A stretch of 63,943 nt of DNA, filler included, from Folioceros fuciformis (taxonomy: Eukaryota), in NCBI GenBank assembly GCA_049999805.1. It is 5 parts of 3 records of this genome, joined end to end, with 100 filler letters (N's around TTAATTAATTAA, not from the genome) between each part and the next. Parts side by side here need not be neighbours in the genome. Positions count along the whole stretch, not along the records: positions 33,992 to 41,009 come from JBNGIO010006183.1; 4 more parts are not named here. One strand, written 5' to 3'. Below the pieces are notes generated by a model that worked only from the letters and a program-made list of their open reading frames with translations, was not told the DNA's origin and searched no databases. Positions 25,085-55,901 of this stretch are shown here, piece after piece; within the stretch, counting starts at the first letter, position 1, and each line of letters opens with the position of its first letter. The translations under genes were made by a program, and so were the position numbers.

Positions 25085-25812
25085 GGTCTCTTGCCAGCTA
25101 TCTTAATCCTCCCCGCATTGTGTCGTGGCACACACCACGGAACTCGCTGCGGGTATCATTCTCGCCCTGCGCAAGTTCTGAGCATTTAAGAGAGGTGAGC
25201 TTGTACAACTTGTAGCGAATGCTGGATTCAGCTAGTCGTTGTGCTCTGTCGGCGCCAAGGATTGCTTCAGCAGCCTCAGGCTTCGTCGTTGCCTGATGTG
25301 GGACTCCTGAGACATGCTGCTCCCTATGAACCAGTGAAGTTTTGTGAATTTCTTCTCAACATGCTACTTACCCCTGGATAGCCTCCTGTCCACAACACTG
25401 AGTACTCTCCATGTCCAGAATGTGTGACAAGCAAGGTCAAGTCCTAAGGATTGATTATGATGTGTATTATTATTATCATGTTTTTCTTCCTAGAAAAGAA
25501 ACCAATTTATTTATGAAGTTTGCCCAACTAGGCGACAAGGAACCCCGTCGGGAAGGCCCGTGTCTTCTTTTCGAGCGGGTTCCTGGAAACCCGCCCTACT
25601 AGGAGTTATGCGCCAAGAGTTTGTGAGGGTTTAGTAACTTCTTGGGAAAATGCTCCTCACGGATAGCCAAGTGTACTAGTCCAGCACTCCCATTGCTTGC
25701 TCGTCTTGCGAAGCTGTATGTGTCCTTTGGAGGAAACAGAAAGTCACCTTTGTATTAGGTTAGCAGAGAGTAGATGAGAGTCTAAGCTGCAGCAGAGGGG
25801 AGCGACGGCAAG

Positions 25813-27450
25813 ATGGCAATTTCGGTAGCGGAGGCCTGTGCGACCGTGCTCAGCAGGGCCCAAAGGCTGGACGCTGTGGAACGGCCGCTGCAGGAGGTTC
25901 TTGACTGCGTTCTGGCACAGGATGTCTGTTCTCCGCTTGGCAATTCGATCAGGGAGCCGTCCCAGGCTCTGAGGCCAATTCCTCAAGGAGACGTCGCCGA
26001 GGATCAGGTGGAAGACACAGATACCGCTTGCAATGGGCAGACTGTGCTGGAAGCTGGACACAGGATCACGGCGTGGGACATGGGCCTGCTCCCATCCATG
26101 GGAGTGACCCAGCTTCAGGTAACTGCACTGTGACGGTGGCACGGGATACCCACCTTAGCTTTCCTTCGTCCGGCTGGCTGATCATCCGGAATTTTGTGGT
26201 ACAGATCTATCCTTTGCCCAGGGTGGCGCTCCTGTCAACAGGAGACGAGTTGGTGGATCCGTTCACGGCCTCCGCCCCGAGGAGTGGCATGGTTTGCGAC
26301 GTCCCCTTCCCAGCCCCACGTGCGATCAGCTCTGCGGGACGAGTTCACAACCATGCTGCTTGCTGCAGATCCGTGACTCCAACAAAGCTATGTTAGCGGC
26401 TGCTTGTGCCGAACTGGGATGCCGCGTGCTGGATCTTGGCATTGCACGCGACCGCCCAGAAGCAGTTACGCAAGCCCTACACACTGCCATCGCCTCGGAC
26501 GCGCATATTCTCGTCACGACCGGAGGGGTCTCCATGGGTGACAGGGACTATGTTAAGCCTTTTCTCCGGCAATTGGGCCAAGTGCACTTTGAACGGGTGC
26601 AACCCAGATCACTACCGTGCTCTTCCGTCAGCACTTGTGCCACAGGCGCATTTGGCACTTACATTCTGCATGTTCCTGTGCAGGTGCTGCTGAAGCCTGG
26701 AAAGCCCATGACCTTTGCATCCATCGAGAGGAAAGCAGAGGGTGGGGTACCGCGTTCCAGTATGTTGGTGTTTGGCCTTCCAGGAAATCCCGTCAGCAGT
26801 TTGGTCTGCTTTTACATTTTTGTTCTCCCTGCCATACGGCAGATGGCGGGCTGGTTGCATCCTCACCTATCCAGGTCCAAGGCTCCGACTCGCGGCTCTC
26901 TTCTTTGCTCACGCTCTTCAGTCACTCGTCCAACAGTTTGTCATGCATTAGAGTGTTGTCACCGCAGAGTACAAGCCACAACGTTGCATCCTATCAAGCT
27001 AGACCCCCAAAGGCCCGAGTATCACCGGGCGGTTATTCGATGGAATGCTTGCTCAGTCCCGTCTGCAGTTGGGTGCGTATTTTGATTTTCCGCTCTTGGG
27101 TGGTGTTCTTGTAATATCGCTCGAAGGACGTCACTCACCATAGGCCCTGTTCCGTTGGCTTGTGTTTCAGTAGATTCACCGCAGAGAGCACAGGGGCCCA
27201 AGCCAGCAGCCGTCTCCTGAGCATGAAAGGCGCCAACGCACTGTTGGATCTTCCTCAGTCAGATGGAATTCTTCCAGCCGGTTCACTTGTGTCTGCCCTT
27301 CTTCTTTCCGATCTTTCTAAAGTCCCTCCTCCGGCTGATTTCTCTGCCCCGGAGACTCCACACCAGACAACGTCTGTGGAGCTCAGGAATCCTGGAGTAG
27401 GAGGTATGGGGGATTTGTTCCGACCCTCAGTAATTGGTGGCTTTGTGTAG
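25813..27450 (+). CDS. CNX1: Molybdopterin biosynthesis CNX1 E-domain (MoeA)-like protein, internally shortened, no G domain detected
   Basis: ISVAEA..VLAQDV, PRVALLSTGDELV, IRDSN..ML, LGIARD, VTTGGVSMGDRDYVKP, KPGKP, FGLPGNPVS, RPEYHRA, STGAQASSRLLSM.GANALL.LP, with GT-AG introns. Confidence 0.8.
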
Positions 27451-28554: not shown

Positions 28555-30590
28555 TCAGAATTCATCATCATCTTCCTCAGCTATGTGCTTGGCAAGCTCT
28601 TGTTCCTGCTGTTGCCTTTCTCGTCTCTTCTCTGCACTCTCCAGCTCCTTCTTATGAGCATCTGGTGGAAACCTCAATGCCTTGACTACCTCGTTGTGTG
28701 TGTTCAGACAGAACGCAATCCGTGAGTGAAAAGCCTGTTGAGGCTCCTGGGTTGAGTAGATGTCACCTGTTTCTTTTGATTGCATCCATCCATTAGCATG
28801 ATCAACAACGGCATCAATTCCCCCATCACGAATCGCCTTCGCCACAATGCTTTCTGCATCAGCAACTGTCATTGTTGCATCAAGATGTAGCTTGGCAGCT
28901 ACGTCAACAAGAGATATCCGTGAGTATGATATGCTGATATTCCGCAGCCCAGTCCTGATCACGTTATGCCGGAGTCGCACAATCAAATTGTGAGTTTTGT
29001 CCTTCAAGAAAACACTAGCATACTTCTCTGCAGTATAGCGAAACAGCTCCAAGTCCCCGATGCGCACGGCCTTCAGATCGTGACATTCATAAGGTTATCA
29101 GATCCCAGCTTAAGACTGCAATATTAGGTAAACACACAGTGTGAAGACAATACAACGATAACAAGGCTTGAGACCATGGACATACATTTGTAAGCTCAAA
29201 GTAGGGTCTAAGAGCCCCCTTCAATCCAGGCTGCATGAATGTTGTGCGCTCTGGAATCTCTCCCAGTAGAAGCCTCACAATAGCAGCCCATTTATTGCAC
29301 TGAATCAGAAAGCCCCGTGCTGTGCTTGGTGCCTTCCTAGCAGCCTGAAGGAGGCACTCTCTGGCATCTGTATATTCCAGCTGAATAGTCCGTATCTTTC
29401 CCAGGTAATACAGGTACCGACAAAGCTGCAATTCTATGAAAGAGTTAGAAAAACCGTGCAGGCCATCCAGGAAAGCGGTATGTGACCACTGTACCCACCT
29501 GCTGATTGGAATGAGTCTCAGAACGTTGTGTTTTGGAGCGCAGCTTTTCGGCTTGGTCGTACAGGTTGTAATGCAAGTAGTTACGAAGCAGAAGATTCAA
29601 CAGGGTTTCCTGACCGGCAAATAGCAACGATCCCAAACAGCAGAAAGTCAACATCGGAGCCTTCAGTGGATGAATCCAAGACGCGAACTAAAGGGTGAAA
29701 CACTCACATTCAGCTCACAGCAAAGCATACCTGACCCAAGTCATCATGTCGCAGTGTAGCTGTGCGATGCAACGCAAGTAGTGCACTGCAGAACCAGAAC
29801 CAGGAAACAAAAATGAGCCCACAAATGGACCCTGATGGGAAACAGGAATCTAAACGAAGTTTGCCTGAATGCAACATAAAGAGATGGACTGGACATACCC
29901 CCGAATCTGCCCTAGAGCATCAGCTTGCTCAAAACTGTACGAGAAATAGAAGTACAGCTTTGCGGCTAAGACATCCATGGTCCTACGGTTGAATTGCTGT
30001 AGCCTCCTTATCCCATAGGCGGAGACCAGTTTTGCCTGCACGACAGTGCCGGCAGATTCAAAACCATCATTGCCACACAAGGAGGGCACAATGTACCCCA
30101 TCCCACCAAAAACCAAAACTGGCGAAGAGACTGACCTCATCGAACTCCTTCTGGTCAATCAGATAAAGGAGGACTACCAAATACGTGTAAATCTCCAATT
30201 CCGGAACCATGGCCTGCTTATACACAGGCTGTGTCTGCGGTGCACCGGGGGTATCGACGTCCATCACTTCATAACCGCCTTCCCTCTTCCCCCTGGCCTC
30301 CTCCTCTTCTGCCGCCTGCGACGATGGCAACATAAGACCCAGCCCCACAAACTCGAATCAGAATCGAAGGAAAGACAACACGATCTCACCTTGGCGATAG
30401 GGGGTAGCAGACGCGAAAGCGCCTCCGAACCAGGAAGCAAAGTCTGCTTGATAAAGGGAAACAAGATGGACGCCCTCAGCTGGCGCCGCCCGGCCAAAGT
30501 AAGGCGCATGGCCCGCTGCAAGAGCCTCACTTCCTTGCTTGCCACTCCCTTCTCGATCAGAATCGCAGACTTGCCGAGCACAGACGCCAT
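28555..30590 (-). CDS. RPN3: 26S proteasome regulatory subunit RPN3 (PSMD3), multi-exon; start approximate
   Basis: KEVR...[80 protein letters not shown]. Confidence 0.95.
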
Positions 30591-30945: not shown

Positions 30946-33342
30946 CTACCCCGACATGCGCGTAACGCCTTGCAACAAACCGCTTTGCTTGAGGTCTGCT
31001 TGGAGGTCTAGCAACTTTCGAAGAACACGTTCCCCCTGTTTTTGATCTTTATGTTTGCTCTCCCCTAGCGTGAAGACATGCACTTCCTGGTCGTGCTCGA
31101 TCCAGCACCGTCCCTGCTCTTTCCATGCACCTGCACTCCGCCTCAGCACGTCTACATCCCTTGCTGCGTCAAACATGCCAGCATCGTGGTAGATGTGAGA
31201 CATCAGCACATACGCTGCTGCCTCTTTGGGGGCTAACCGAATGGAGCTCTCGAAACAGCGTCTTCCCAGTGCTGGGCAGCGGTGGCTGCGGCAGGCAGCG
31301 AGTAGTGACGACCACACAGCTAAGTCAGGCTCCCACGGCATCTTGAGCACCATGTCTTCTGCTTGGCTCAAAAGTCCTGAGCGCCCAAGAAGGTCTACTA
31401 TGACGGTGTAATGCTGTAAAGTAGGATCAATGCCGTGGTCTCTGCTCATGGCAGCAAAGTATTCCAGGCCTTTCTCGATCAGGCCTCCGTAGCTGCAAGC
31501 CAATAGGAGCGCAAGAAAGGTGACTCCGTTGGGAGGAACACCTGCCCGCTGCATCTGCTCAAACCACTGCAAGCTTTTTTCACATTCTGCTTGTCGTGCG
31601 TAACCTGCTATTAATGCTGTCCAAGCAAATATATCCTGCCGTGGCAACACATCGAAAACCTGCTGAGCACAGGCCATGCTGCCACACCTGCCATATGCAT
31701 GAACAAGAGCATTTCCCACCAAAATGCTGTGCTCACATCCGCCTTCCACGATATCTTGGTGTATTCGATGGCACATATTTACGGACCCTATACTACTGCA
31801 CACTCTCAGAATGCACAAGAACGTAGCCTCATCCGCTCGAAGACCTTGCATTTGCATCCGGGCATAAAGGTCGAGAGCCTTCTCATCTTGCTGTTGCTCG
31901 GCACAACCTGAAATCATTGCAGTCCATGCCACCACGTCCCTCTCAGGCAATGCTTCAAAAAGATGGTAGGCGTAGTCGAGGTTCCCACACTTTGCATACA
32001 TGCTCACTAGAGAGCTGCAAACCCACCAGTGGGAATCATGTCCACCCGAGACAGTTTCAACATGGATTGCCTTCCCCTTCTCCAACGCCTCCTTCTTCAG
32101 CCATTGCCCGTCCACGAGTGTCCCAACCTCCATTTCTGCAAGGGTAGCACACGCTTTCAGGGCACTCATAACGGTCCTCTCGTTTGGCGTGACTCCCTCG
32201 TCACGCATTCGTGCATACAGTTGCAGCGCCTTCTCACCTTGCCCTAGTTGAGAATATCCAGTGATGAGTGCAGTCCACGACACCACATCGTTTTGAGGCA
32301 ACATGTCGAACACTCTTTGCGCATCTCGCATGCTCCCGCACATGGCGTACATGTGCACCAAAGTGCTACCAACAAAACTATCCGAGCCGTATCCCATGCG
32401 AACAGCTTCAGCATGTACAGCCAGGCCCTTGTTCAACGACTCCACCTTAACTGCCAAATCATTCTGTAATGTGCTTTCCTCTACGGCTGCAAGGCTACAG
32501 CAAGCTTGCAGCACCCTGACCAAAGTCCTGTCATTGGGTGTGACGTCTTCCTCCAGCATCAGAGCATACAGTTCGAAAACCTTCTCCCCTTGTTGCAGAT
32601 GAGCATACCCCGAAATCATGGCAGTCCATACTATCACATCACGATTCACCAATTTGTCAAACACATGTTGTGCCTCAACCATGCTCCTGCACCTGGAATA
32701 CATATCAACCAACGCAGTCCCCACAAACAAATCCTGCTCGCATGCTTGCTGAACCACTTCAGAGTGAACCCGCCTGCCCTCATCCAGGTCTCCCAAGCCA
32801 CCACAAGCTCTGAGGAGAGGGACGAACGTGTATCTGTTCGGCTGCACCCCCTCCTGTTTCATACGCCGGTACCAGCCTAAAGCCTCACGGCCTTGCCCTG
32901 TATTAGTGCACCCCGTGATGATAGCCGTCCAAGCGAATGCCCTCCTGTAAGACAACCTTTCAAACACCTCAATAGCATCCACAAGGCTTCCGCACTTGAC
33001 CAGCGCGTTGACCAGCGATTCGGCCAAGAACAGGTCAGAATCCATCCCCATCTTCACCATATGGGCCTGCACTACCTTTGCATCAGCCAGAGCTTTCTTC
33101 CTCACGCACGCCTGCAGCAAATCCTTGTAAGTGCGTACCAAAGTGGCCCTCCCCTGCTGCTCCATACGAAGTAGGACATCCCCTGCTCTTCCCACCTGAC
33201 TGCAAACACAAAATCCATCACACAACAAGGTCGCTACGTCTTCTAACAGCTGCTAACCACCATCTCCAATACTTACCCGCCCACTACCCTTCCAAGAGCG
33301 AGCAGCTTCCTCAACCTCCTCCGGCCTCCCAATCCCCGCCAT
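30946..33342 (-). CDS. PLS-class pentatricopeptide repeat protein with E1/E2/E+ extension (truncated DYW); short putative first exon 33277-33342
   Basis: 760-aa ORF of P-L-S triplets (xxWTAxIxGY, LVxMYxxCG), HYTVIVDLLGRSG, WSSLLAAC, AGAWKEQGRCWIE..VHVF. No HxE/CxxC deaminase signature. Confidence 0.93.
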
Positions 33343-33544: not shown

Positions 33545-33991
33545 GCGAGCCCGCTTAGTGCTCGCGAGTTTGTTCAATCCAGGCAACCAGATACTTCCAC
33601 GAGCCCACGGAGTACCCGCTCGGTGGATAAATGCAAGGAGAAATCGCTTCCTCACAGAAAAAAAAAAAAAGAGGACAAAATTGAAGCCGAGTGAACCAGC
33701 TACAAAGAAAGGGAGCTAGGGCAAAGGACTCTATAAGTAATGGCATAAGTGAAATAAGGTGAAAGTTAAAAGTAGAAAGGTGAAAGCTAAATCTAGAGCT
33801 GTCTTGATGAAGAAGCAAGTATGCTTCTTACTGCCTTTGGAAACAAAATGTGTGTTCCAGGCAAAACCTCCTAAGAAGGATGGAGTTGTAANNNNNNNNN
33901 NNNNNNNNNNNNNNNNNNNNNNNNNNNNNNNNNNNTTAATTAATTAANNNNNNNNNNNNNNNNNNNNNNNNNNNNNNNNNNNNNNNNNNNN

Positions 33992-34435
33992 GAACAGACA
34001 TGCCCATGACATAGCCCGTCGATATCGTGAAGAAAAGGAGCGTCAACGAGGACGTAGCCACAACTATAACACTTCTAGAGGATCTGGGTACAACTCCCTA
34101 AATGCACCACCAAGACTCCTAAGAGAAGAATGGTTGAAGGAACTCCTTCTTACACTTGAAAATCAAGGATGAACTCAATTTATAAATGAGCCTGCATTCT
34201 CTTGCCATGGTGTCTGCACACCATGGAAGAGAGCCATGGCTCTGATACCAAATTGGAAGACTACATGTGGAAGCGTGTCTTCTACATACAAAAGTTGAAT
34301 TAAGATTAAATTGTGAAGTATAATTAATTGTCCTTTTATAGGTACCACCCGAAAGGGTGTGTCCTTTCACTAGTCTAGATAACTAACCTATCAGTTACAT
34401 TGCTAAGCTATCTAGACCTAAGGTTACATAACTCA
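33992..34435 (-). mobile_element. 5' LTR, PBS and leader of a second LTR element nested in the 3' end of the copia at 34.4-39.9 kb; body lost in gap
   Basis: tRNA-iMet PBS TGGTATCAGAGC at 34239-34250 (minus strand). The adjacent sequence does not match the LTR at 39723. LTR boundary approximate. Confidence 0.5.
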
Positions 34436-37400
34436 AGTGAACTGCTACCTCTTCTAACTTGGAGGAAGAACCAGTTGAACAAAACTTTGACCCTAACTTC
34501 CTACATAGAACAAATGAACAAGACAGTAGCTCTGGTTTAGATTCTGAGGCCTTCTAAGTGTAAAGTAGGGTAGCTTACTCCAAACACTGCACAATCAGGA
34601 CATCTACCAAACATTGCTAAGCTGTCAGGTAAGAAGAGTCAAGGACTCCTAGTGACTCCTTGAACTGCAAATGTTTTACCTTTGGTAGGGCTTTGGTCAA
34701 ACGATTAGCTGCATTAGAATATGTAGGTATGTATACCAGATATATCTGACCTGTTGATACTGCATGTCGTATGAAGTGGTGGTGCACCTCTATGTGCTTG
34801 GTTCTTGCATGAAGAACCGGGTTCTGAGCAAGTGAAAGGGCAGACTGATTATCGCAATAGATTGTTGTTGGTTGTGTCAGCTCCTGACCTAAATCCTTGA
34901 GAAGTCTTCTCAACCATATGCCCTCCTTTGCTGCTTGAGTGAGGGTAGAATACTCTGCCTCGGTCGAGGATAATGATACTGTGACTTGCTTTTTCGAAGA
35001 CCAGGTGATTACCCCTCCAGATAGCAAGAATGTGTATGTGGAGAACGAACTTTCTGGTGTCTGGATTTGCAGCCTAGTCAACATCACAATAACCCAACAA
35101 GGTTAGTGGCTCACCCTCATATGACTGCTTTGTGTAATGGATGCCATGCTTACTCGTACCCCTAAGGTACCTTAGGATCGTCTTAACAGCCGACCAATGA
35201 GCCTTACCAAGCTCCTTAAGGAACTGTGATGTCATACTTACAGGTAAAGAGATGTCGTGCCTGGTGTGATTAAAGCAGAAGATAAGTGACCCCACTGCTT
35301 GTGAATAGGGAACCCCTTCCATTTCCTGCTTATCTGCTGCTGTAACTGGTGACTGCTCCAGGCTTAGCTTATAGCCTGCTTCCATGGGTGTTGCAGCTGA
35401 CTTGACATCTGTCAACTTGTATTTATGTAACATGTCAAATATGTATTTCTCTTGATGTATGATGAGTGTGCCACTTGACAGGTCACGGAGCAGCTGTGTA
35501 CCCAAGCAATAGAACAGCTCCCCGATATCAACCATGTCAAACCTTCCAGATAAGAGAGCCTTCACTATGTTGATGCCTTCTAGGTCAGTGCCTAGTAAAA
35601 TACAGTCATCAACATACAAAGCTAACACTACGAATCCTGGTTTGTCTTGTAGAAAGTACACGTTGGAATCAGCATCCCTTTTGCAAAAACCAAGATCCAG
35701 CAGAAACTCGTCGATGCACTGGTACCAAGCTCTGGGTAACTGTTTCAACCCGTAAATAGTCTTCAACAGTTTACAAACCCAGTCCTCCTATCCTGCAGTT
35801 TCGTATCCCTCTGGCTGCACCATATAGATTTCTTCCTCCAAGTTGCTATGAAGAAAGGCTGTTTTCACATCCATCTCGTGGATGTACAGGGAGAAGAATG
35901 CTGACATGGCGAACAGGGCATGGAGGGACTATGCCTTCACCGCCGGAGAAAGGTATCATGGTAGTCTAGTCTTGGGACTTGGGAGAACCCTCTAGCTACT
36001 AAGCATGCTTTGTACCTCGCTACAGATCCATCAGCTTTATACTTCAATTTAAACACCCACTTACAACTGACTACCTTCCTCCCCTTAAGCGGGGGACAAA
36101 CCTCCCATGTGTGATTGTGAAGCAGGGAATCATATTCGGAAGTAATGGCAGCAATCCAGTGACGTGAATCAGGACCGGAAACAGCCTCCTAATAGGACTG
36201 CGGCTCATAGCCAGGTTGGACAGCAAGGTGAGAAAACTCGGCAACTGTCTCATCTGGATTTGCTCCCACTACATGAGGAACTGGTAGAGTCCTACATGCT
36301 CGCCAGTCTTCTGCCTCATAAGGTTGTTCCCACCATTGATCTCTGCCCCTATGTGTTATCTTTGATTTGCGAGGTTGAACTGCAGGAAGATCAGGTGGGG
36401 GGACAAAATATTCAACGGGGTCGTCAACATCTGGATCAGCAAGGGCAGGAAGTACGGGCAGACCTTCAACTGAGCCAACGTCATCCACAGCTAGAGGATC
36501 AGGATCAGGGTGAACTGGCACAGCAGGTGGGTCTCCAGGTTCATGTCCGTCAGGTTGAGAGGGATCGACAGCAAGAAAATCCACAATATCCATCATGTCT
36601 GGGTCCACATCCTCTACCTGACCATGAACTCATGAACTTCCAGGTCAGGAACAATGTCTGAGTCATGAGGAGTGGTAAGAACAGTGCGTTCATCGAACAC
36701 TACTGTACGAGCATGGACAACTGGACGAGAAGATGGCTCAAACAGCTTATACCCATGGATACCAAGTGTGTATCCTATGAACACGTGTCTCTTAGATTTG
36801 AAAGCAAACTTCTATCTAAGCTTATCTGGAATATGAGCATAAGCTGTGCTGCTGAAAACCCTGAAATGTGAAATGTCGGGCTTCACTCCTGTCCAGGACT
36901 CAAACGGTGTACAGTCAGGAAGAGAAGACATCACAAGCCGATTCTGGAGATAAGTAGCTGCCTGAACAGCTTCAGCCCAAAAACGAATAGGCAACCTCCC
37001 CTGAAATAGCAGAGCCCTTGCAACATCCTGGATTGTTCTATGTCGGCACTCTGCTCTTCATGTCAGGATGATAAGGAATAGTCAGCTGCCTTGTAATACC
37101 ATATCCTAACAAAACTCATGGAATGCTGTACACAGGTACTCCTTCCCATTATCCAAACGGATGCACTTAAGTTTATAACCTGTTTGACGTTCAGCATATG
37201 CCAGGTACCTCTTAAAACTGTCAAATACATCGCTTTTATGCTTCAGCAATTCAGTGACAGTGAAGTGCGTTTTGTCATCTTCGAAAACAACAAAGTATTT
37301 TGCTCCTCCCCAGCTTGGAGTCGACATTGGACCACAAATATCAGTGTGAACTCAGTCTAACACTTCTGTGGATTTTCTTGGTTTCCCAGAACCAAAGTGT

Positions 37401-39915
37401 GACTTAAACTGCTTGCCATGAATGCAAGCGAAACATAGATCAAGATCTGGTAAGTCAGACTCTGTAAAACCTGTAACCATCTTCTCCTTCAAAAGACGTC
37501 GCATTGCTTGAATATTGGGGTGACCTAACCTACAATGCCATCTGAAAGCAACCTGAGTTCTACTGACTGGAAACTTAGATACTTGAGCTGTTTGTTGTGG
37601 CAGGTCTAAGACAAAATCCAAGAGATATAGGTCATATAAGGGGGTACCTCTAGCAATAATTTCTGAAGGGGCACTCAACTTGGTAATTGCACACTCTAGT
37701 CCTTCAAACAAAATACTATACTGACCAATCTCACCTAAGACCATGGTGCTAACCAAATTTTTCTTGAGTGCTGGGACATGTAGAACATTCTCTAACTCCC
37801 ATGTTTTCCCATTGTACAGAGTCATAATAATAGATCCCATTCCCTTAATGGGTATATGTGAATTGTCCCCTAAGACGACTGCATGCTGGAGAGAAGATAC
37901 AACATACTTGACAAAGTTATTTCTAGAAGAGCACATATGATTTGACGCACCACTTTCTAGAAACCACTGATTCCTACCCTTCGAAACAGAAGATAAACAG
38001 GTAACCAGCAGTCCTGGTGTAGCAGCTCTTGTAACATTTGATTCATGTTGCTTGCCCTTTCCAGCGTCATCTTTTTGTTTCTTTCTGCAGTCTCTAACCC
38101 AATGACCTGGCTTGTGGTAGTAATTGCACACACCAGGTTTCTTGCTGGGCTGCGATGGATTGAAGCTGGAAGACTCGTAGTTGGACGCGTGTCCTCTACC
38201 TCTTCAAAAGCTTCCACGTCCTCGCCCCCTGAATATTGCGGCCTGTAAAAAGAGCTGTATCGCTCTGTTTATGGGTAGAGGTTGAACCTCCTTTGCTCAT
38301 ATGCTTTCTGTTGGCCTCTGCTTGTAAGAGAGCGCCAACAAGCTTCTGAACTGTGAGGTTTGTTACTGCAGGTGTGGTTGCTGTTGCTGGAGTGACAGTG
38401 GCAGCAGCTTGAATACTTGAGCTCCAAATTTCGTAACTTGGAGGGAGGCGTATCAGAAACTAAACAGCTGCCCTCCCTTTAGATAAGATCACTCCACAAG
38501 CTGCTAACTTGGCTCTTACAGCTCTGAACCTGGCCACATGACTCTCAACTGAGTCAGTTTCTTTCATGCGCAGGTTTTGAAAATGACTTATTGCTGCTGC
38601 CTCCGAGATGACATCCTTAGACTCGTAAGTGTCATTCAGCAAAGACCAAACCTCATGTGAGAATTTAGTCAATTTGATATGTGGTATCATCGTCTGAGAG
38701 ACTGATCCCACTAGAATTGTCCTTGCTTTGCGATCCTTGGAGAGCCAATCAAGCTCATCCTTGGCTGTCCACAGCTTCTTATTAACTCCTCCAGGAGTCA
38801 GTGTGCCAGAGTCTTGACCAGCAACACGCCGTGGAATCGAGCCATCAGCAACATCCATAAGCAATTTCTCCTCCAGAATACACCTCACCCGAAAAGACCA
38901 CGCATCAAAATTATTAGGGGTGAATCTGTCTTTTTCTTGTAAGCGGTCAGAATACTGATTTGCCGCCATGATGCCTGTGATGAGGAGAACTACATAGTAG
39001 GGGTTCTCAGGAAAGTCATCTTCTCCCTGAGTTCGTCAATCTCTGACCTATGACTTTTGATTTCTAATTCTGCCCCTACTGCAGCGACGCACTTTGACTC
39101 CCGCAATTTCTCCAGGCTATCAAGGCGGTTTGATAAAATGTCTACTCTTCGTGAACTTTCCAAGACGTAAGACTTGACATTAAAGAGAGAATTGAAGAGA
39201 GAGTCAAATTGTTTCAGATCTTGTGAACTGTAGGGTTTACAGGATCTACACTTTACATATTGTTGTTTCAGTGAGTTGTAATTTGCTAGGCAGCAGGAGG
39301 TGTCTAATCTGTCCACATTTCTGAATTGCGCACGTGAATTGGAGCCAGAATGTTCTGAATAATAAGAATCAGTAAATGCTTTCAAGAAACGCACCCGCTC
39401 TTCCTGTTGACTGGCGAAGATTTGTTTCTTGAAATACAGTTGTTCAAATTCTTCTCCAAAACTTTCCAATTCAGAAGTAGATTGATGCCGAGCCTTGCTA
39501 TTCCTAGCAGAGACTGGCCACACCTGCCTGCAAACGCCCTTCCGAGGCATCTCGCCTCCACCGCATCAAACCGCGCACATATTGTTCAATTGCCATAAAA
39601 ATATATTTTTTTTTTGTTAAAGAATCAAGAACTGAAAAAACATGTTTTTGGCAATAATGTAAGACGATTTCAAATAGCCATCAGGATGAGCAAGGCAGGA
39701 AAATTGCCTTGCTCTGATACCATGAAAACATTGTAGTGCATGGATCAAACCACACGCATGCACACACAAAAGAGTTAGTTATTTAAGAATAAGGTCCACT
39801 ATAGATATGTCCTCAGACACTAGTAGTTGTAACTGCTACAATAACCCTAACTACCTAAGGTACAACCCTAAGAGTATAGGCAATGTACTAACAACTAATA
39901 TCTACTTGTTTAACA
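34436..39915 (-). mobile_element. Ty1/copia LTR retrotransposon, degenerate (extra 5' ORF, gag, CCHC, PR, INT, RT, RNaseH)
   Basis: 5' LTR 39723-39915 (TG...CA), PBS 39711-39722, gag from 38969, CNYYHKPGHWVRDC, WFLESGASNHM, WHCRLGH, YGLKQ, LYVDD, LSSTEAEY, RTKHIE. The 3' LTR was not found. Confidence 0.92.
38990..39550 (-). CDS. Accessory 186-aa ORF between PBS and gag of the copia element; C-terminus probably coiled coil
   Basis: Open ATG-to-stop ORF ending 20 nt before the gag ATG; heptad-like ILSNRLDSLEKL...EIDELREKM. Confidence 0.55.
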   Translation of the reverse strand: MPRKGVCRQVWPVSARNSKARHQSTSELESFGEEFEQLYFKKQIFASQQEERVRFLKAFTDSYYSEHSGSNSRAQFRNVDRLDTSCCLANYNSLKQQYVKCRSCKPYSSQDLKQFDSLFNSLFNVKSYVLESSRRVDILSNRLDSLEKLRESKCVAAVGAELEIKSHRSEIDELREKMTFLRTPTM

Positions 39916-40727
39916 AATGTGGCAACATTGCAACAGCTGGATGTCTTGGGGCACTACAGAAAAGGTGCCTGAGATAGCATTGGCAGGAAGTAGTGAAGGG
40001 AATCGCTACTGTAGGTCCTAAAGGCGGAAAGCAGCAATGCATTACGCCTTGGGACAATGGTCACAATAAATGTAACGACTGACCAAGATGCCATTTAGCA
40101 AAAGGGCCTCCAGACCTGTGCAAATGCCCCCAAACAGTTCCAGCAAACTAATTCCAGAAGTGGGCGCCGTCCACGTGATGATCTGCTGGCTCATCGTGGT
40201 GGAAGATGCGTGTCCGCCCAAGGGGGAGTGTTGAAGTTGTAGAGCTTGCTGAACCAGGTCAGACACTTCAAATGATGGTGGAGTGTCTCCTAGGCAAGCT
40301 GCTGTGACCAAATGGTTGGCCTTAGGATCTGAATCCAAGTCGACAAGCTCCTACATGTCACTCAAATGCTAGCTGTCGGCGGGGAGCACCTCGGGGACAG
40401 CCTGAATGGTCGCCATAAGAACTGGAGTAGCTAGGACAGTGGGGACCTCGGTGTCCAATCCGCCATGCAGATTCAAGGGAAAGTGCGCCACTTGCTGACC
40501 TTCACTACGCCAATTGGGGTGATAATGAGCTTGGTCTGTCCAATTGTCCACGATGATGTCGGGTGGAAACAAAAACTCCTGTCGAAGAAGGACATCGTAG
40601 TTGGCGGCTGTCGTGATAAGGCAATGAATGGCCAATGTCATAGTAGCGGCTGTCTCGGGCTTGAGTGTGATGGCTAGTGGCTAAACCGTCTCTCCACACA
40701 TAGGTTCCACCGCGCCAAAGGCTGTCC
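39916..40727 (-). pseudogene. Gypsy-like retrotransposon fragment: protease C-terminus plus N-terminal half of a C5 DNA methyltransferase, cut by the copia insertion
   Basis: ANYDVLLRQEFLFP...DNW, then GISLLELFGGICTGLEALL.NG...YIYCD...RFPSLLP...VPQDI; collinear with 47050-48560. Confidence 0.75.
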
Positions 40728-41009
40728 CGCAACCAAAATGTACTGATTCTGCCGAACTCGAGTCTTTGGCTGGATCGGTCCCACAAAATCGATTCCCCAC
40801 TTCTCGAAGGGTGCCAAAGCCAAAATCGGCACCAACGGCCATTGCGTCGTCGGGGTAGGCTTCCCCACCCGCTGGCAGGCATCACATTTTTTTACGTACT
40901 GTGCTGTATCTCGGTACATTGTGGGCCACCAGTATCCTGCCTCTAGGATCTTCCTGCAAGTAATATGCGCTGCGAAATGGCCACCTGCCTCCCCGTCGTG
41001 CAGGCCCCT
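40728..41009 (-). mobile_element. Ty3/gypsy integrase fragment
   Basis: GHFAA..T.RKILEAGYWWPTMYRD...VKKCDACQR, PFEKWGIDFVGPI, YILVA. Confidence 0.85.
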
Positions 41010-41109
41010 NNNNNNNNNNNNNNNNNNNNNNNNNNNNNNNNNNNNNNNNNNNNTTAATTAATTAANNNNNNNNNNNNNNNNNNNNNNNNNNNNNNNNNNN
41101 NNNNNNNNN

Positions 41110-46600: not shown

Positions 46601-47045
46601 GAATATAAATTGTCAAGCAATGACAATCTTAATAGTGAACTTGGAATTCCATCTATGGTAACGCTAAGTGCTAAAGAGCTTTGTTACGTACCACCTCATG
46701 AGTGGCAAGTTCAAAGTGAACCAAAATGGAGAAGATCGGGGAGGGTTAGAAAACCCATTGACAAATATAACTCTACAAGTTATAATATGCATTATTACAT
46801 GTACATGACAAGAGTTGCGGATTGTAAGGAACTGACCACATTTGCTGAGGCACTGATAGACGAAAAGTGGTTTCATGCCATGGATGAAGAATACTCAGCA
46901 CTAGTTGAGAATGGAACATGGGATTTCGTGCAGCTGCCAGTTGGTAAAGTCTCAATTGGTTCAAAATGAGTTCATAAGCTGAAGGTCAAAGTAGATGGAT
47001 TGCTGGAGCGTTTCAAGGCCAAGTTGGTTGCTAAGGGATATGCAC
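43697..47045 (+). mobile_element. Degenerate Ty1/copia (5' LTR 43697-43909, decayed PBS, gag, PR, partial INT, RT start)
   Basis: TGTTAG...TAACA then TGGTAT; KNFALWKFKM, CYYCGKFGHIVKDC, PQQNGVAERKNR, LKVFGC, AMDEEY.AL..NGTW, FKAKLVAKGY. Confidence 0.85.
45129..45624. mobile_element. Probable solo LTR (~496 bp) inserted just after the gag zinc knuckle
   Basis: Termini TGTGACACA...TGTGTAACA; imperfect flanking duplication AGTCA/AGTAG. Confidence 0.45.
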
Positions 47046-47049
47046 ACTC

Positions 47050-47850
47050 CTCAACTGTAGGCTCCTCCTGATGGCTCGTGCGAGTGTTCAATAGCAAACT
47101 TGCGCCATTGCCATGATAAGCAAAGAAGCCAAGCATGCTCACTAGAGTGGGCAAGGTGTTCCGAGGTTGTCCAAGAACATTGGTGGAATACCAAGGAGGT
47201 TTCTCTGGACCATGGATAGGGCGAGCCTCATGATCCTCATTCAATACATCTGACAAGCTCAATGTGGGATCAAAGCAAGGTCCAATAATTACGCAAGCAC
47301 TAGGCATAGCTCCCAACCTATGCAGCATCCATGAGAAAAGGGTGCCCAATGTGGTGTTGAATGATCATCATGTCCTGCTGCACTTGATCTTGCTCCAAGT
47401 GCGCAGGGGTGTTCTAAAGCAGGTAGGCACAATTGGGATAACATTGTTGTAGCCATACCAACAATTGGTGCAATTCCCAAAACAGTCCACTACGCGTGTC
47501 CTATAGACTAGCCCCTGCACCTGCCTATGAGAAGCCTTGACACTCCCATCGTGTGACAAGGATGTGCACCATGCCCAAGGCCTAAATATGGCCATGTTGT
47601 ATGTAGCATACATCCTGGGGTACAGCAAAGAAAGCACTGTGAAAGGTTGTCTAAGGCAATTGAATGGGACAACAAACACGCAGCTCTTGTAGGCAATGGG
47701 CTGCCATTGCATGTGCCTCAGGACTGCTGTCACAATACACGTAGTATTGAATGTGCAATCCAACAATGAGCACGGCCTCAAGTCCGATGCATAAGCCTCC
47801 CAAGAGCGCTAACATGGTGACTCCCTTAGTAGGGATTGTCTAATCTACCA
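47050..47850 (-). pseudogene. Retrotransposon-encoded C5 cytosine DNA methyltransferase domain (motifs I-VIII in one frame with nonsense codons; target-recognition domain and start of motif IX in a shifted frame)
   Basis: Manual translation: MLALLGGLCIGLEAVL..G...YVYCD...VPQDV...ILVTRWECQGFS*AG...DTRSGLFWEL...AYLL*N...MDAA*VGSYA*CLRNYWT, then LPTLVS...EEPTVEE. Confidence 0.8.
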
Positions 47851-48739
47851 CATGCTATTACACCATTTGTCCAGACTGCGGATGTAACAAACCTATCTCC
47901 ACCAGTGTGTTGACTTGCAACAGTTGATGACGGGCAGTTTGTAGCTGGTCATCGATTGTGGCCGGGTGATCAGCACTGTGCACAACATTCTATGCAATGC
48001 AGAAAATAGCATGCATTGTAGAGCAACTCAGCACCTCCTCACTCTCAATCTTCAGTGTGGACTCAAGATGGTCCTCATCTCGTAGTGGATCAAGTGGGAT
48101 TGTCATGCAAGCTAGCTCCATGTTGTCAAAGCAGGCTTGTCACATGACCCTGGTAGCGATGTCAACCTTTGCATTCCCATGAAGCCTAAGTGGAAGGAAA
48201 GCCACCTTCTTGCCACCGTCTAGACTGGGTGTCTAGTCTAGACGATAGTATGCTTGCTCAGTCCAATTATCAATGGTAACGCAAGGGGGAAACAAGAATT
48301 CTTGGCCCAATAAGACATCATAATTTGTGGCAGGGATGACCAAATAGGGGACACTAAGAGTCATGGCATCCTCCATCCATGGATTAAGGGTGATGTTGAC
48401 AGGGTGCACTATTTCCCCCATGACTGGCTCAATGGCTCCAAATGTTGTCCGAACATTCCAAGGAGAACTTTGCAACGTAGGCCCATGAAGCTAAAGTCTA
48501 GCAACCAAGGCTTTGCCTATGATGACAGGTTGTGCCCCCTGTGTCAAGCAGCACAACCCTTGGAGCATAACCATTAATGGTAACTACCCGGTGCCATTGT
48601 CGACAAGCGCATTGTTGACCCTCTCCGTGAGACGATTGGTACGCTGCACTCATGGCATGTCCTAAGAGATTGTTGAGGGCACCCAGCCACCAAAGTTCTT
48701 GTATCCCCCCCCCCCATTGTGAGCCAAGCCAGGGGTAAT

Positions 48740-49018
48740 GCCAGCAGCCATCATATTTGGCTCTGCCATAAGATGGGGCTGCCAGGTCATGGCTAAATGC
48801 CAACAGCCATCATATTTGGCTCTGCCATAAGATGGGGCCGCTAAGCCATGGCTAAATGCCAGCAGCCATCATATCCGGCTCTGCCATTAGATGGGGCTGC
48901 TAGGCCATGGCTGAATGCCAGCAGCCATCATATCTGGCTCTGCCATAAGATGGGGCCGCCAAGCCATGGCTAAATGCCAGCAGCCATCATATCCAGCTCT
49001 GCCATAAGATGGGGCTGC
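48740..49018. repeat. 59-bp tandem repeat, ~4.7 copies, between gag and protease of the DNMT element
   Basis: Repeated GCCAGCAGCCATCATATYYGGCTCTGCCATAAGATGGGGCYGCYAAGCCATGGCTAAAT. Confidence 0.9.
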
Positions 49019-51289
49019 GGATAACTGGCGTACAACACTATTGGATGCTGCAAATCCATGACCAAGGTTTCAAGCCCAATGCCCATGTTGCGAAGGGTAA
49101 ACAATGGCATGCTAGTGAGCTTAACAACTAGCTCCTCAATTGCTAGGGTCATGGGCAGCAAGTAGATAGAATACTGACCTACCTTGAGGGACTTGGCACC
49201 CGGTGACCTTCCCATGCTTGGCTGTTCTCCAGCTGCAACAAAAGGCTCTTGTTCTTGCATGGGGATGGCCATGCCTGGAGGCAACGGAGTGAAGGACTTG
49301 GGCATTACAACCTGTGCTCCCCGCTGCCATGTGAGTGGTCCAGGGATGCTAACAGCTTCACATTGTGCGCGGGCTTCACACATCTAACATCGCCCCAACA
49401 TCCACCACAATAGTAATTGCAACGATTCTCCTACCTACTCGCTCCATGAAATCTAATCGCTTGGGCCTCCCAATTTCATATAGCCAGCTAGTCATGGTGC
49501 ATAAGCTAAAATCACTTCACGTCAACACCTCGAGTGAGCAGCTAAGGTCATCAAGAAAGTCTCCTTGCTATCCACAATGCTCAATTGTGAAGCCAATGTC
49601 CACCGTAACAGCACTTGCAGCGATCCTCCTTCTTGCTCGCTCTAGAGAAATCCTCCTCCCCATGGATGGAGCAATGCTGCCTATGGCTTCTTATCCTCCG
49701 ATGCAAGAAGCCTACTATTACCGTGCCATCCCTTCCTGATGTCTATCTAGCTTGAGCCCCACTTGAACTCCTTGCCGAATCGAAACGAGATCAGTGTATC
49801 GGTGTCATTGAAAGGTTTGCAAGCCAGATTGATTGGAAGCACTTTGCTATATCAAGAGAATTTGTGTCTCGCCCCGCCTGCGTATCTCGCATCGCTGCCC
49901 CGTCGCTCATCTTTGGTCCCAAACTGAACCAAGGTGACAAATCTCCATGAGTGTAAGCCCTCTCCTAAGCATGCTACTCCCTCTTGTGGTAGCCATGAGC
50001 TCCACTACGGGTCTTGCAATCTCGAAATTGTCATCCCTCTCTCGATCGCTTAGCTCTAATACCATATGTAAAGAAACATTGGTCTCGCTAACAAGCCCAT
50101 AGCCATAAAGGAAAACAAGGAACCCCTCAGTTCAGCAAGCAGTCCCTTCTTGTAGCCTATGCCATGGGTCCTAGTTTGGGTTCTTGACCCTGGTTAGTTG
50201 ACTAGCTACTTGAGTTAGTTACTAACTAGAGTTCATTTAACTTGAGTTACTTCACCCGTAGGCCTAACCCTAACTATTTATCTGGTTCTCTTCTAAACTC
50301 TAGGCATGCTCTAAGCTGATATACTTGTAGCCATTGTTCGTATCCTAGCAATTGCATCTAGGCACTCATGAGGTGCCCCATCCTAGTTCTCATAAAGCTA
50401 CTATCAACTCGTTAGCTCACAACTATGGTTGGCCGTGACAGTGACAGATCAACCACAGTATCCTCTAAGTTGGCGTGTGAAACATGTTCAAACGTTCGGA
50501 TGAATGACTCTACATCCACATCCTTGCATTTGTCTCCAAATTTGATGTACGTGGAATCCACATGGTGACTGGATCCCTTGGGAAAAGTCAGTCGGCTCTG
50601 GGCAGGCAGGTGGCTTCCAGGATCAATCAAGCAAGCGGGCGCTGTCGGGATGGCAGGCCAGTCGACTCTGAGTAGGCAGGCGGGCGGATGCAAGCATGTG
50701 GCTGGCTGGCTGCCAGGCAGGCAAGCGGGTGGCAGCGCATCCAGGTAGTAGGGTGGCTGGACCGGATCAGCGGGCAGGCGGCTGGCAGGATCAAGGCAGG
50801 TTGGCAGGCTGCTGGCTGGCTGGCTGGATCGGCCAGGCGGTGGTGTTGATCAAGAAGGCTGAGTTGCGGTTGCGCAGGCAGGCGGACTGGATGGCAAGGA
50901 GGCAAGTAGGCGGCTGGCAGGCATCCGGCGGTGGCACAGACGGGCGGCAAGCTGGCTGATAAGGAAGGCTGGACCGTGGCAAGCAGGTCAGCAAGTAGGC
51001 TGGCTGATCAGGAAGGCTGAATCGCGATAAGCAGGTCAGCAGGCAGGTTGGTTGATCATAAAGGTTGGATCGTAGCAACAGCGATCTAGCCTTCCTCGAA
51101 TGGCGGCTGCAGCAGCTGCGTGTGTTTGCGGGGTGTCGGCTTTTGACCTCCGGAGCTGGGATGGTACGAATGCTGGTGCACAGGAGGGAAAGGAGAGGAT
51201 GTTCCTGCAGGAGCGAAAGACCATGGACAGTGGTGTGGATAGCAACGAGGGGAAGAACTCGGACAGTTCGTGTGAGAGTGGATATTTCC

Positions 51290-52291: not shown

Positions 52292-52476
52292 TGGCGTAAG
52301 GGTTAGGTTCTTGACAGGTGGTGTAAGGGTTAGGTTCTTGACAGGTGGCGTAAGGGTTAGGTTCTTGACNNNNNNNNNNGTAAGGGTTAGGTTCTTGACA
52401 GGTGGCGTAAGGGTTAGGTTCTTGACTGAGGGTTAGGTTCTTGACAGGTGGTGTAAGGGTTAGGTTCTTGACAGGT
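52292..52476. repeat. 27-bp tandem repeat, at least 6 copies, spanning a 10-N gap
   Basis: Repeated GGYGTAAGGGTTAGGTTCTTGACAGGT. Confidence 0.9.
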
Positions 52477-54696
52477 GTGAAAGATTTTGACCGTGTGGAT
52501 TGATGTTGACCTTGGTGGAGAGTGATGGGGGTTCTTGGCTAAGATAGTATAATGGGCCAGCTCTGCCATTTAAGAGGGGGCAGGCTTTGGTGTGATTCTC
52601 CTTGTTCCTTGTGAGCAGGTTGTCGGATTAAGACGTTGATCCGTGTGAGAGTGCACCTTGGGCTTGATCCCCTTGCCGTTAAGGGGGATGTGGTGGATCC
52701 CTAAGCTACCAAGATCTGAGTGGCCAGATCTGTGGGTGTGGACCCTTCTTGTATGTTGGTTGAGGTGCCTTGACGTCCTTGGGTGGGTTCCAAGGTAAGA
52801 GTTGCTGGGCTGTGAGCCAAGGAGGCTATCCAACTCAAGACCTCACATCTCCCTAAGCCTTAAGGTTGCAGGTGGAAAAATTGATGTGTTGCAAATTCCA
52901 AGAGCTAGAGAGTTGTGTTGTGAATTTCAGGGTATTACATTTTCAGCTGTTGAAGTAGCTTGTGTATGCATTAGGAATAAAGTTAGGAGTTAAACTTTAT
53001 TGCCCTAACTACTGTTAGGGTTGGGTAGGGGTTGACACGGTAGGATAACTTAGTTTGAAGATAACTTAGTGTGAATGCCTTGCACGAGATCACTCCCTTG
53101 GGAATGAGATTCTCCCTTGGGAATGAATCTCAGGACTGCAACAGCAAAAGGGTTAATGTGAACCTCTTGGTGATCCTTTGGTCTAGAGGGTCACTCCACA
53201 TTAGCCATTTTGTGGGTAGTATTCAAAGCTCCTCCCGCTGCATTTCCTAAAACACCAAATGAATTGGTAGCAGGCTGCACAGAAGCAAAACAAGAAAGAT
53301 CAGAAATTGGCAAATCACAAGGGAGTATATGGGACCAACTCCCCTGAGTGCGAACAGGTCCATTTATGGCACTACCCCTCGAACCGGGAAACCTGGCTAC
53401 ATAAAAATCTGGTTCCCTTAGTTGAGCACGTCTAGTTGCTTGCAAATCTCTTGTTGATGGCGTAGGTTAAGGCAGTGCGTTGTGCATCACACAAAAACAA
53501 CCTCCATTTGTTCTTGTCCACCAAAAAACAGTTTCACTCCCGACAACGGGGCCAAAAATGTGGCACTTAGGTCCTCGAAACCCCGAGGACCCTTGCAGAG
53601 TGGCCACACCCATTGTCGTTGTAGGCTTATTATCCACGGACACTTAACTGACATTGACCAACACCTGACATTTATTGTCATGTTAGACCTAGGATTTTGT
53701 TTTCCTACTACTACGGAGGACTGACAATACAACTCTACAAAACACTCACAAAAAACACCCTTGATGGCTGTAGGTAAACCTACAGAAACAAGACCAACAA
53801 TTTCACTCCTTCTTACACAAATAATAGAATAATAAAGTGAAAGCTGCTTAGACATTGACATGTCAGACTTGGGGGGGAACATGAAGACTTTATAAAAAAA
53901 GAGATGGAAGTTCCATCTACCCCGTGACAAGGGGAACAACCCACAGTGGGGAAAAGCCAAGAAAGGGGGCCTAACCCCCTCATCCATCTAGCCTGTAACT
54001 CCCTATCGCCCCTAAGATGTCATATTTAGGTATGAGGTATGGCCTACTTACCATTGGGGCCGCTAAAGCTGCATCCGCCACGTTTGATGTCGTCTGAAAA
54101 ATCGTGTTTACCAAGCACTCAAACCTATAGGATAGGAACCTATCCCATATCCAAAAATTTCACATTCCACACCCACCTTCTCCTAGCCTAGGTCTGCTTC
54201 GGGAAATTCTCAACAGGACATTCCTAGATCAAATCCAATACCGTGGTTCATCATCAGAGTCCTTAGATTGCATTCCCCATGAAAAGTGTACCCAACATAT
54301 AATAGTTGCTCCTCAATTGTCACTAACAGTCAACTAAATTGCCACCAATCAAAGCACTTGCAAAACAAAATCTGCTCCTAGAAAAATCATAGAGACTCAC
54401 ATCACTTCTTCATCACACTAACACATGAGTCCTTAAAGTCAGCATGTTGGTTCTTCTTGGCGTGAAGTTTGGGAGGCCATGCTCCCTTCTAATCTAGCCT
54501 AGTCTAGCTACACTCTGAGACTTGAATGTAACTCTAGCATATTTTCATAGCTGCAAATGGAAAAACTTGAAAAACACACTCAAGTTGTAGTTCCTGGCAT
54601 GAGCAAATGTAGCACAAGCAAAACCTTGTTGTTCTAAACTTTCAAATACAATTAGTCTCTAGATAGAACTTTAAATTGAACACAAAGCATACCAAT

Positions 54697-54850
54697 TGCT
54701 ACAAGAAAAGATGCTAGTGCACAAGTTGCATAAAATGACAATTAATTAAACTCAACCAAAAAAAAGGTATTATATACAAAGTGTCTTTTCATAACTATGG
54801 TTAATTAACCCTAAGGTAGGTTATACTAAAATAACCCCTTATTATTAACA
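54697..54850 (-). repeat. 3' LTR of the full-length copia
   Basis: TG...CA, near-identical to 61021-61174, adjacent to PPT TAAGTGGGAG. Confidence 0.95.
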
Positions 54851-55694: not shown

Positions 55695-55901
55695 GTTCAA
55701 AAAAAAAACCACCAACACCTGCTGTCCTCTACGTTTTTCCTTTCCAAGTTCATTGTTTTTTTTTTTCTTTCCTTTTTTTTTTTTTGCCAACAACACTAAT
55801 CAGGCTTTAACTGAGTAGAAAGTCTGGCTTAGCACTTGTAGGCTCATAGTTCTCCTCCTCTTTTTTTGTGTGATCTCACTGCTGAGCTTACAGCACAGGT
55901 C

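Follow-up and report, generated by a model that had tools for sequence, protein, structure and literature searches.

Cytosine methylation is the main weapon of the host against transposons, so the usual roles are reversed when a transposon brings a de novo methyltransferase of its own. In the streptophyte alga Klebsormidium nitens, a Dnmt3 DNA methyltransferase (DNMT) has been described inside a Gypsy element, KnitGypsy-Dnmt3, the copies of which show Ka/Ks<0.2 (de Mendoza 2018, Nat Commun 9:1341, PMC5890265, covered here in part). In this work, we analysed a stretch of 63,943 nucleotides from the land plant Folioceros fuciformis (NCBI GenBank assembly GCA_049999805.1), referred to as the window, in which two fragments on the minus strand, copy A and copy B, join a retroviral-type protease (PR) through a linker to a DNMT. 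Copy A is very probably a relic of a DNMT3-carrying Ty3/gypsy long terminal repeat (LTR) retrotransposon. The explanation that we favour for the whole locus, and hold with only slightly less confidence, is that copy A is a dead Gypsy-DNMT3 relic that was cut by a copia element, and that copy B, also a relic but longer, comes from a sister lineage that is deeply diverged.

KnitGypsy-Dnmt3 resembles copies A and B in having a Dnmt3-type DNMT in the coding region of a Ty3/gypsy element, in its streptophyte host, in the lack of introns and in the signs of purifying selection (PMC5890265, in the parts covered). It differs in that its host is a charophyte alga, whereas copies A and B come from a land plant and are dead fragments. 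The K. nitens protein KFL_013780020 (P0183 in our homologue set) was found by Pfam to have the order zf-CCHC / PR / DNMT, a zinc knuckle, protease and DNMT order like that of copies A and B, and the DNMT tree places it on the side that holds copy B; however, its identity to both copies is low, with fewer than 230 of 290 residues aligned.

The protease-DNMT architecture proposed by the initial annotation is real, but it is not a discovery of this window, as a Gypsy element with Dnmt3 had already been described in a streptophyte alga (PMC5890265, as far as covered). Later citations, in the parts covered, speak of 'streptophytes (Gypsy-DNMT3)' (bioRxiv 10.64898/2026.05.21.726589) and of 'previously reported in streptophytes' (PMC12344493), and the text covered of PMC5890265 makes no mention of Marchantia or other land plants as hosts. 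No description of a DNMT-bearing LTR retrotransposon in a land plant was found in the literature searched, with subscription journals and bioRxiv supplements outside its scope, and K. nitens is the sole described streptophyte case in that literature. The window, together with unannotated Marchantia proteins, places the same protease-DNMT design in land plants. The Gypsy-DNMT3 kind being known, diverged and selected lineages of it in a land plant would be a modest extension at most.

Two further systems have been described. SymbioDIRS-Dnmt3 of Symbiodinium also carries a Dnmt3-type DNMT in a retrotransposon polyprotein, with two coexisting domain orders and with de novo CG methylation shown in yeast, but its element is of the DIRS type, encodes a tyrosine recombinase and resides in a dinoflagellate, and its authors regard it as an independent capture (PMC5890265, in the parts covered). 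The 'EpiLTR' DNMT of Cymbomonas is sister to DNMT4, according to the part covered of bioRxiv 10.64898/2026.05.21.726589, and is distinct from the polyproteins with reverse transcriptase (RT), RNase H and DNMT that are discussed below.

The protease-DNMT junction in copies A and B

Both copies were read with the help of homologues. A phmmer search of copy B against 1.84 billion representatives returned 591 matches with E<=1e-3, of which 285 have E<=1e-10; polyproteins of 1.5-3.4 thousand amino acids (aa) are frequent among them. The homologue set consists of 196 fetched proteins (P0003-P0198), for 24 of which Pfam was run, while the domains of all 196 were mapped by phmmer with segments of these proteins; in 23 of them, the alignment spans 230 or more of the 290 shared residues. 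The parts of the two copies are as follows.

40513-40725, minus strand: copy A, C-terminal half of a retroviral-type aspartic protease, TAFGAVEP...NYDVLLRQEFLFPP...DNWTDQAHY, aligning to the Pfam aspartyl-protease region of P0007
40168-40512, minus strand: copy A, linker between protease and DNMT, about 115 residues, poorly conserved, two in-frame stops
39916-40167, minus strand: copy A, predicted N-terminus of a Dnmt3-type C5 cytosine methyltransferase, about 85 residues, ITWTAPTSGISLLELFGGICTG...VVPQDIQLLQCCHI, three in-frame stops
47047-48616, minus strand: copy B, protease, linker and DNMT motifs I to about IX, from homologue matches and a single-frame read

The single-frame translation of 40755-39916 (minus strand) contains six in-frame stops (five TAG and one TAA) and zero frameshifts. 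It reads ...TAFGAVEPMCGETV*PLAITL...ANYDVLLRQEFLFPPDIIVDNWTDQAHY... in its 5' part and ...ITWTAPTSGISLLELFGGICTGLEALLLNGILVSRYIYCDHCPKA*CIAAFRL*DLQ*RFPSLLP...FSVVPQDIQLLQCCHI in its 3' part, and the TAFGAVEP...DNWTDQAHY...RL*DLQ*RFPSLLP...FSVVPQDI reading quoted in the initial annotation is present here in one frame. The homology itself occupies 40725-39916, beginning at the T of TAFGAVEP, so the earlier start at 40727 was corrected to 40725. The catalytic D-T/S-G of the protease is not in copy A, which begins downstream of that site.

After the linker, copy A reads ITWTAPTSGISLLELFGGICTGLEALLLNGILVSRYIYCD...VVPQDIQLLQCCHI, and this start aligns to the DNA_methylase-matching start of P0170 and P0174. 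The SAM (S-adenosylmethionine) binding motif I of Dnmt3, which we take to be F-x-G-x-x-x-G, is present as LELFGG at 40143-40126, within LELFGGICTG at 40143-40114; its presence had been noted correctly, but the coordinates first given for it, 40108-40143, span LELFGGICTGLE. Copy A was also said to be cut just before motif IV, and the alignment to copy B agrees, placing its end about 15 codons short of the motif IV cysteine. As a result of this 3' truncation, copy A is without motif IV (P-C-Q/N), motif VI (ENV) and motif VIII (RxR). With six stops, no DTG and none of these three motifs, it makes neither an active protease nor a methyltransferase, and the locus itself is a dead fragment without function. 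The rest of copy A, from motif IV onward, was not found elsewhere in the window by searches with the three frames of copy B (E<=1) or with seven outside homologues (E<=1e-3).

Copy B is longer and more damaged in its frame. Its protease active site, LLDTGG at 48545-48537, is shifted out of frame within a G run, and a second frameshift is present near 47.26-47.31 kb, with at least two in total. Over 507 codons, the single-frame read contains 18 stops; it extends to 46973, beyond the end of copy B at 47047, and the last few of the 18 stops sit past the second frameshift. Motif I reads LALLGGLCIG, motif IV ECQGFS (47545-47528) and motif VIII RNYWT, while motif VI reads LL*NTP, where a TAG replaces the E of ENV that is found in 23 of 23 homologues. 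E-C-Q in place of the usual P-C-Q in motif IV is shared by copy B with P0006, P0007 and P0098, and PCQ is found in P0003 and P0014; judged from these sequences, E-C-Q is a putative clade-specific change beside the catalytic cysteine. Across the single-frame reads of both copies, TAG makes up 17 of the 24 stops. A reading of TAG as a sense codon was rejected, as the homologues carry differing residues (W, E, H, Q, R, A and others) in the corresponding columns, and the TAG excess is a mutation bias, not a recoded codon.

When the three minus-strand frames of 39700-41009 were searched against the window by tblastn, the only non-self match was that of 40755-39916 to 48478-47585, with 102 of 300 residues identical (34%, E 1.95e-39), and the reverse search returned the same pair. 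By blastn (word 7, E<=1e-3), no nucleotide similarity was found between copies A and B, only the self match. The description of the copies as collinear yet clearly diverged is thus borne out. Identity at the aa level is 55% in the protease (71 columns), 41% in the DNMT block (71 columns) and 26% in the linker block (126 aligned columns, the first DNMT residues included), so the two segments are alike in the DNMT as well as in the protease, contrary to the outcome that the initial annotation had set as its refutation.

The codon alignment of the two copies, which had been suggested as a check, gave identities at codon positions 1/2/3 of 0.66/0.79/0.27 in the protease block and 0.51/0.70/0.28 in the DNMT block. 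The proportion of nonsynonymous differences (pN) was well below that of synonymous differences (pS) in both, with pN 0.27 and pS 0.93 in the former and pN 0.37 and pS 0.85 in the latter, but a dN/dS number is not obtainable, as dS is saturated (pS of 0.85-0.93 exceeds the limit of 0.75). Identity at position 3 (0.27-0.28) is at the random level. Positions 1 and 2 being kept while position 3 is random, in both blocks, most of the divergence between A and B arose under selection, when the elements were working. This agrees with the Ka/Ks<0.2 between the K. nitens copies (PMC5890265, in the parts covered).

The lineages of copies A and B therefore appear, from this codon pattern, to have separated while protease and DNMT were under purifying selection, and later both died and decayed. 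The later decay is visible as stops, frameshifts and loss of CpG: observed/expected CpG is 0.55 in copy A and 0.32 in copy B, compared with 0.65 in a pentatricopeptide repeat (PPR) gene of the window, and the TpG+CpA excess is 1.40 in copy A and 1.56 in copy B, as expected of long-methylated dead repeats.

Another explanation for the pair could be one recent duplication of an already dead element, in which case all divergence would be neutral and would say nothing about sublineages or about selection on the DNMT. Both copies are indeed pseudogenes with many stops, in the window they are no more than 8 kb apart, and a tree of the junction region (25 rows) joins them as sisters (99/93), with P0006 next (95/90). 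However, the 8-kb proximity spans an artificial scaffold linker, the linker part of the protein is far less conserved than the PR and DNMT domains, and neutral decay would affect the codon positions equally and would not spare positions 1 and 2, so it is not the main source of the divergence. We therefore consider a recent duplication quite improbable, and separate descent of the two copies from working elements is preferred.

Homologues and the DNMT3-carrying Ty3/gypsy class

Among the 196 homologues, the DNMT is immediately preceded by a protease in 40, by RNase H in 79 and by RT in one, with no preceding domain detected in 74 and no DNMT match in the remaining two. The protease-first order was confirmed by Pfam in P0007, P0157, P0172, P0170, P0174 and P0183. 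The most complete arrangement of this kind is that of P0170, with zf-CCHC / aspartic protease / DNA_methylase / RVT_1 / RNase H / Integrase_H2C2 / rve, to which P0174 adds a PHD finger; others (P0003, P0007, P0157, P0172 and P0183) are shorter open reading frames (ORFs) that end after the DNMT. The intact polyprotein of the family is therefore predicted to be gag (zinc knuckle), protease, DNMT3-type methyltransferase, RT, RNase H and integrase, with or without a PHD finger. Copies A and B have the PR-linker-DNMT order in single-frame reads, the same order as in P0183, P0170 and P0174, whereas the gypsy-type pol (RVT_1, RNase H, integrase H2C2 and rve) is found in P0170 and P0174 and not in copies A and B.

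A second design, RVT_1 / RNase H / DNA_methylase / integrase / PHD, was found in P0012, P0013, P0021 and others. These polyproteins, including those of Cymbomonas tetramitiformis, have a gypsy-type pol and a DNMT homologous to that of copy B (35-42% identity), and they share the PHD finger with one form of the protease-first class, P0174. They are unlike copies A and B in that the DNMT follows RNase H, not the protease (79 against 40 of the 196), and they are one branch apart in the DNMT tree. Many homologues carry a C-terminal PHD finger past the integrase. In chromoviruses, the position after the integrase is taken by a chromodomain.

The members of the protease-first class that are named in their source are six 'hypothetical proteins' of Marchantia polymorpha and one of K. 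nitens, and those of the RNase H-first class are three of Cymbomonas. The Marchantia proteins (Mp_8g17980, MARPO_0063s0090, 0204s0011, 0024s0079, 0020s0163 and 0007s0008) are gag-PR-DNMT proteins of the same class as copies A and B, with 27-29% identity to both over the junction; the DNMT tree has them on the side of copy B, but in a tight clade of their own (100), apart from the copies of the window. They are listed at NCBI as 'hypothetical protein', annotated as belonging to the host, and are not described as retrotransposon genes in the literature searched.

The tree of the DNMT domain was built by a quick search on 61 rows, in which the RNase H-first class was limited to the first 22 rows plus the named ones, host DNMT families were not among the rows, and copy A was left out because it is too short. 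The 36 PR-DNMT rows, K. nitens and the six Marchantia proteins among them, all fall with copy B, and one branch (SH-aLRT 93, not starred) parts this side from the 24 RNase H-DNMT rows. The initial annotation had called the protease-DNMT order a stable family architecture, not a one-off gene capture, and this is supported by the codon pattern of A and B together with the 40 of 196 homologues. Its further claim of multiple sublineages is likewise supported, with the correction that copies A and B, although diverged, are nearest relatives of each other in the tree of the junction region and are sublineages within one host-side clade.

The DNMT part could also be viewed as a fragment of a host DNMT3 gene that came to lie by chance beside a transposon protease. 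The nearest solved structures are of the host type: for the intact homologue P0014, 29 of 29 matches in the PDB at E<=0.01 are DNMT3A/B/C (best E 1.8e-10), and 22 of the 24 weak matches of copy A are likewise DNMT3A/B/C (best E 0.36), with residues 201-243 of copy A aligning weakly (E>=0.36) to the first 50 or so residues of the DNMT3A/B catalytic domain, the other two being PurK. Moreover, land plants other than flowering plants retain a host DNMT3 (PMC10952607, in the part covered). A chance neighbourhood does not fit with the same intronless, one-frame order of protease, linker and DNMT in copy B and in 40 of 196 homologues, with the same order in polyproteins that continue to RT, RNase H and integrase, or with the grouping of the copy B DNMT with the protease-first retrotransposon class, and it is hardly credible. 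The DNMT is better read as part of the retrotransposon, and by the nearest structures of P0014 the DNMT of this class is predicted to be of Dnmt3 type.

It is possible, although we are somewhat doubtful, that DNMT3-carrying Ty3/gypsy elements persisted beyond Klebsormidium into land plants, here the host of the window and Marchantia, as several long-lived, selected lineages of the protease-first class, and that the DNMT moved once within pol; the single move is suggested by the one branch of the DNMT tree by which the two classes differ. If this is true, the methylation landscape of plants has for hundreds of millions of years included a de novo methyltransferase borne by transposons, and some 'host' DNMT3-like genes of bryophytes would be transposon genes. 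In the window itself, two lineages of one genome kept their DNMT under selection before dying. For annotation, this could mean that DNMT3-like 'genes' of bryophytes, lycophytes and ferns are transposon ORFs, and copies A and B could be a starting point toward an intact copy that encodes a putatively catalytic DNMT of this class.

How a living member of the family works can be proposed only tentatively, and the following scheme, although the likeliest one, is rather less likely than not to be correct. The DNMT3 domain would be translated within a Gag-PR-DNMT(-Pol) polyprotein and released from it by the protease of the element; it could then act on the new cDNA of the element or on the insertion site, so that a new copy would enter the genome already carrying 5-methylcytosine. 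Self-methylation of cDNA is an idea put forward in the Discussion of PMC5890265, which was covered in part. The negative yeast result for KnitGypsy-Dnmt3, given below, weighs against this scheme.

Flanks of the two copies and the scaffold layout

The sequences on both sides of copy A were examined for the origin of its two ends, and the following features were found.

39723-39915, minus strand: copia 5' LTR, 193 bp, TG...CA, TGTTAAAC...TTTTCA
39711-39722, minus strand: copia primer-binding site (PBS), TGGTATCAGAGC, adjoining the LTR
34620-39710, minus strand: copia internal part with gag, Pol_BBD protease, gag_pre-integrase, rve, SH3 and RVT_2; it has stops and no 3' LTR
40737-41009, minus strand: gypsy-type integrase fragment, H2C2 zinc finger and start of the core (Integrase_H2C2, E 3.4e-13)

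On the downstream side, the homology of copy A to copy B and P0174 runs to 39916 and then stops, and the LTR, PBS and gag-pol of a copia element follow from 39915, as had been described for a cut exactly at the 5' LTR. The interrupting element has the LTR with TG..CA, the PBS and the order gag-PR-IN-RT (IN, integrase) of Ty1/copia. Its TGGTATCAGAGC word, which we take to be of the tRNA-Met type, has four matches in the window with one mismatch or fewer, compared with 0.32 expected by chance. Immediately in front of the LTR stands the pentamer ACATT (AATGT on the plus strand). The insertion of this copia, with its 5' LTR at 39915, would have cut the Gypsy-DNMT3 element downstream of copy A.

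At 34239-34560 (minus strand), directly past the RNase H end of the same copia, an LTR-like stretch is followed by another TGGTATCAGAGC (34250-34239). This LTR and PBS pair at 34.25 kb gave no alignment with the 193-bp LTR and is unrelated to it; either the 3' LTR of the copia cutting copy A is lost, or 34.25 kb belongs to another copia.

On the upstream side, the integrase fragment lies in a frame other than that of copy A and runs into a scaffold linker at 41010. Compared with the integrases of P0170 and P0174, it shows 31-34% identity. The integrase and protease readings overlap by about 20 bases, with the breakpoint within 40707-40737, and since the intact design has its integrase far downstream of the protease, this join either arose by rearrangement or was made in the assembly.

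The gaps at 15456-15555, 33892-33991, 41010-41109 and 62227-62326 each consist of 44 N, TTAATTAATTAA and 44 N, which is an artificial six-frame stop linker between scaffolds. Copy A is on a 7,018-bp, repeat-only piece bounded by two of these linkers, and copy B is on the next piece. As the window is a chain of scaffolds, the 8-kb spacing of the copies and their neighbourhood across linkers are no evidence of linkage. The earlier suggestion to close the gap at 33.9 kb with long reads, in order to reach the remainder of the element, loses its basis for the same reason: the gap is an artificial linker, and the remainder need not lie behind it.

With such a layout, the two junctions of copy A could be assembly products. 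The integrase/protease join at about 40.72 kb, and perhaps also the DNMT/copia-LTR join at 39915/39916, could then be chimeras of a short-read, repeat-collapsed assembly, and there would be no true copia insertion. The small repeat-only piece between linkers fits with this, as do the 3' side of the copia, which is followed by another LTR and PBS at 34.25 kb, and the lack in the window of a 3' LTR, that is, of any second copy of the 193-bp LTR, and of a visible 5-bp target-site duplication. However, the homology to copy B and P0174 ends one base before a canonical TG...CA LTR with its PBS, as a true insertion gives and a random misjoin does not, and the PR-linker-DNMT part is contiguous and collinear with 23 outside homologues. 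Chimeric joins of this kind are therefore held to be improbable, and a Gypsy-DNMT3 relic cut by a real copia insertion is preferred.

Beyond the possible assembly joins and the missing LTR and duplication, further results weigh against that reading. No family was found by Pfam in copy A at E<=0.1, so its domain assignment is a prediction from homologues and not from a direct Pfam match, and copy B has only a sub-threshold match to DNA_methylase (E 0.038; 13.8 bits against a cut-off of 22 bits). No RT, RNase H, LTR or gag of the Gypsy-DNMT3 family was found in the window, where P0170 and P0174 match only copies A and B and the integrase fragment. In the tree of the junction region, the joining of A and B was flagged by the tool as a meeting of two long branches. 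For the described relative, the DNMT domain of KnitGypsy-Dnmt3 gave no methylation in yeast, a result that its authors call inconclusive (PMC5890265, in the parts covered).

At 47046/47047, copy B gives way to the RT of a plus-strand copia, with no LTR edge there. This copia (gag at 44588 to the start of RT) meets the minus-strand copy B head-on at that point, inside both coding regions (46970-47047), and the junction is one of deletion or rearrangement rather than an insertion edge. Just upstream of the copy B protease, at 48723-49031, there is a tandem repeat with a 59-bp period, in which overlapping copies of 118 nt are 86-92% alike and of which the translation, in the frames read, repeats ...PSYGRAKYDGCWH... 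as a unit. A PBS-like word, TGGTATTAGAGC, is located farther from the protease, about 1.4 kb upstream at 50053-50064 (minus strand); it has one mismatch to the copia PBS and could mark the 5' end of the element to which copy B belonged. No LTR pair was found for this element, and no repeat pair, either LTRs or the DIRS-like layout reported for K. nitens, flanks copy A or copy B in the window.

Other features of the window

The rest of the window was scanned with Pfam on stop-free ORFs of at least 70 aa, comprising 141 ORFs at 28.5-63.9 kb and 150 at 1-28.7 kb; ORFs below 70 aa and a few of the shorter ones at 22-28.7 kb (among 296 listed) were left out. Plain N runs are present at 302-401, 52370-52379 and 60403-60502.

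A nearly whole Ty1/copia element occupies 54689-61175 (minus strand). Its LTRs (54689-54851 and 61015-61175) are 98-99% identical, its PBS, TGGTATCAGAGC, is at 61009-61020, and its gag, protease, integrase and RT ORFs are 208-383 aa long. It looks much younger than the DNMT copies.

The other genes recognised in the window, ordinary plant genes on the first two scaffolds, were the following.

1854-2294: DOPA dioxygenase
5801-7301: kinesin
8570-14963: malectin receptor kinase
23212-23982: LHC
24494-25081: RPS10
25786-27447: MoeA/CNX1-like gene
28558-30357: PSMD3

The PPR gene used above for the CpG comparison is located at 30949-33252 (minus strand) and is of the PLS type, intact and intronless, encoding 768 aa. 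It lies on a scaffold next to that of copy A and points to a land-plant host, probably one outside the seed plants. Its best named relatives, in Calypogeia, Adiantum and Diphasiastrum (liverwort, ferns and lycophyte), are 35-43% identical.

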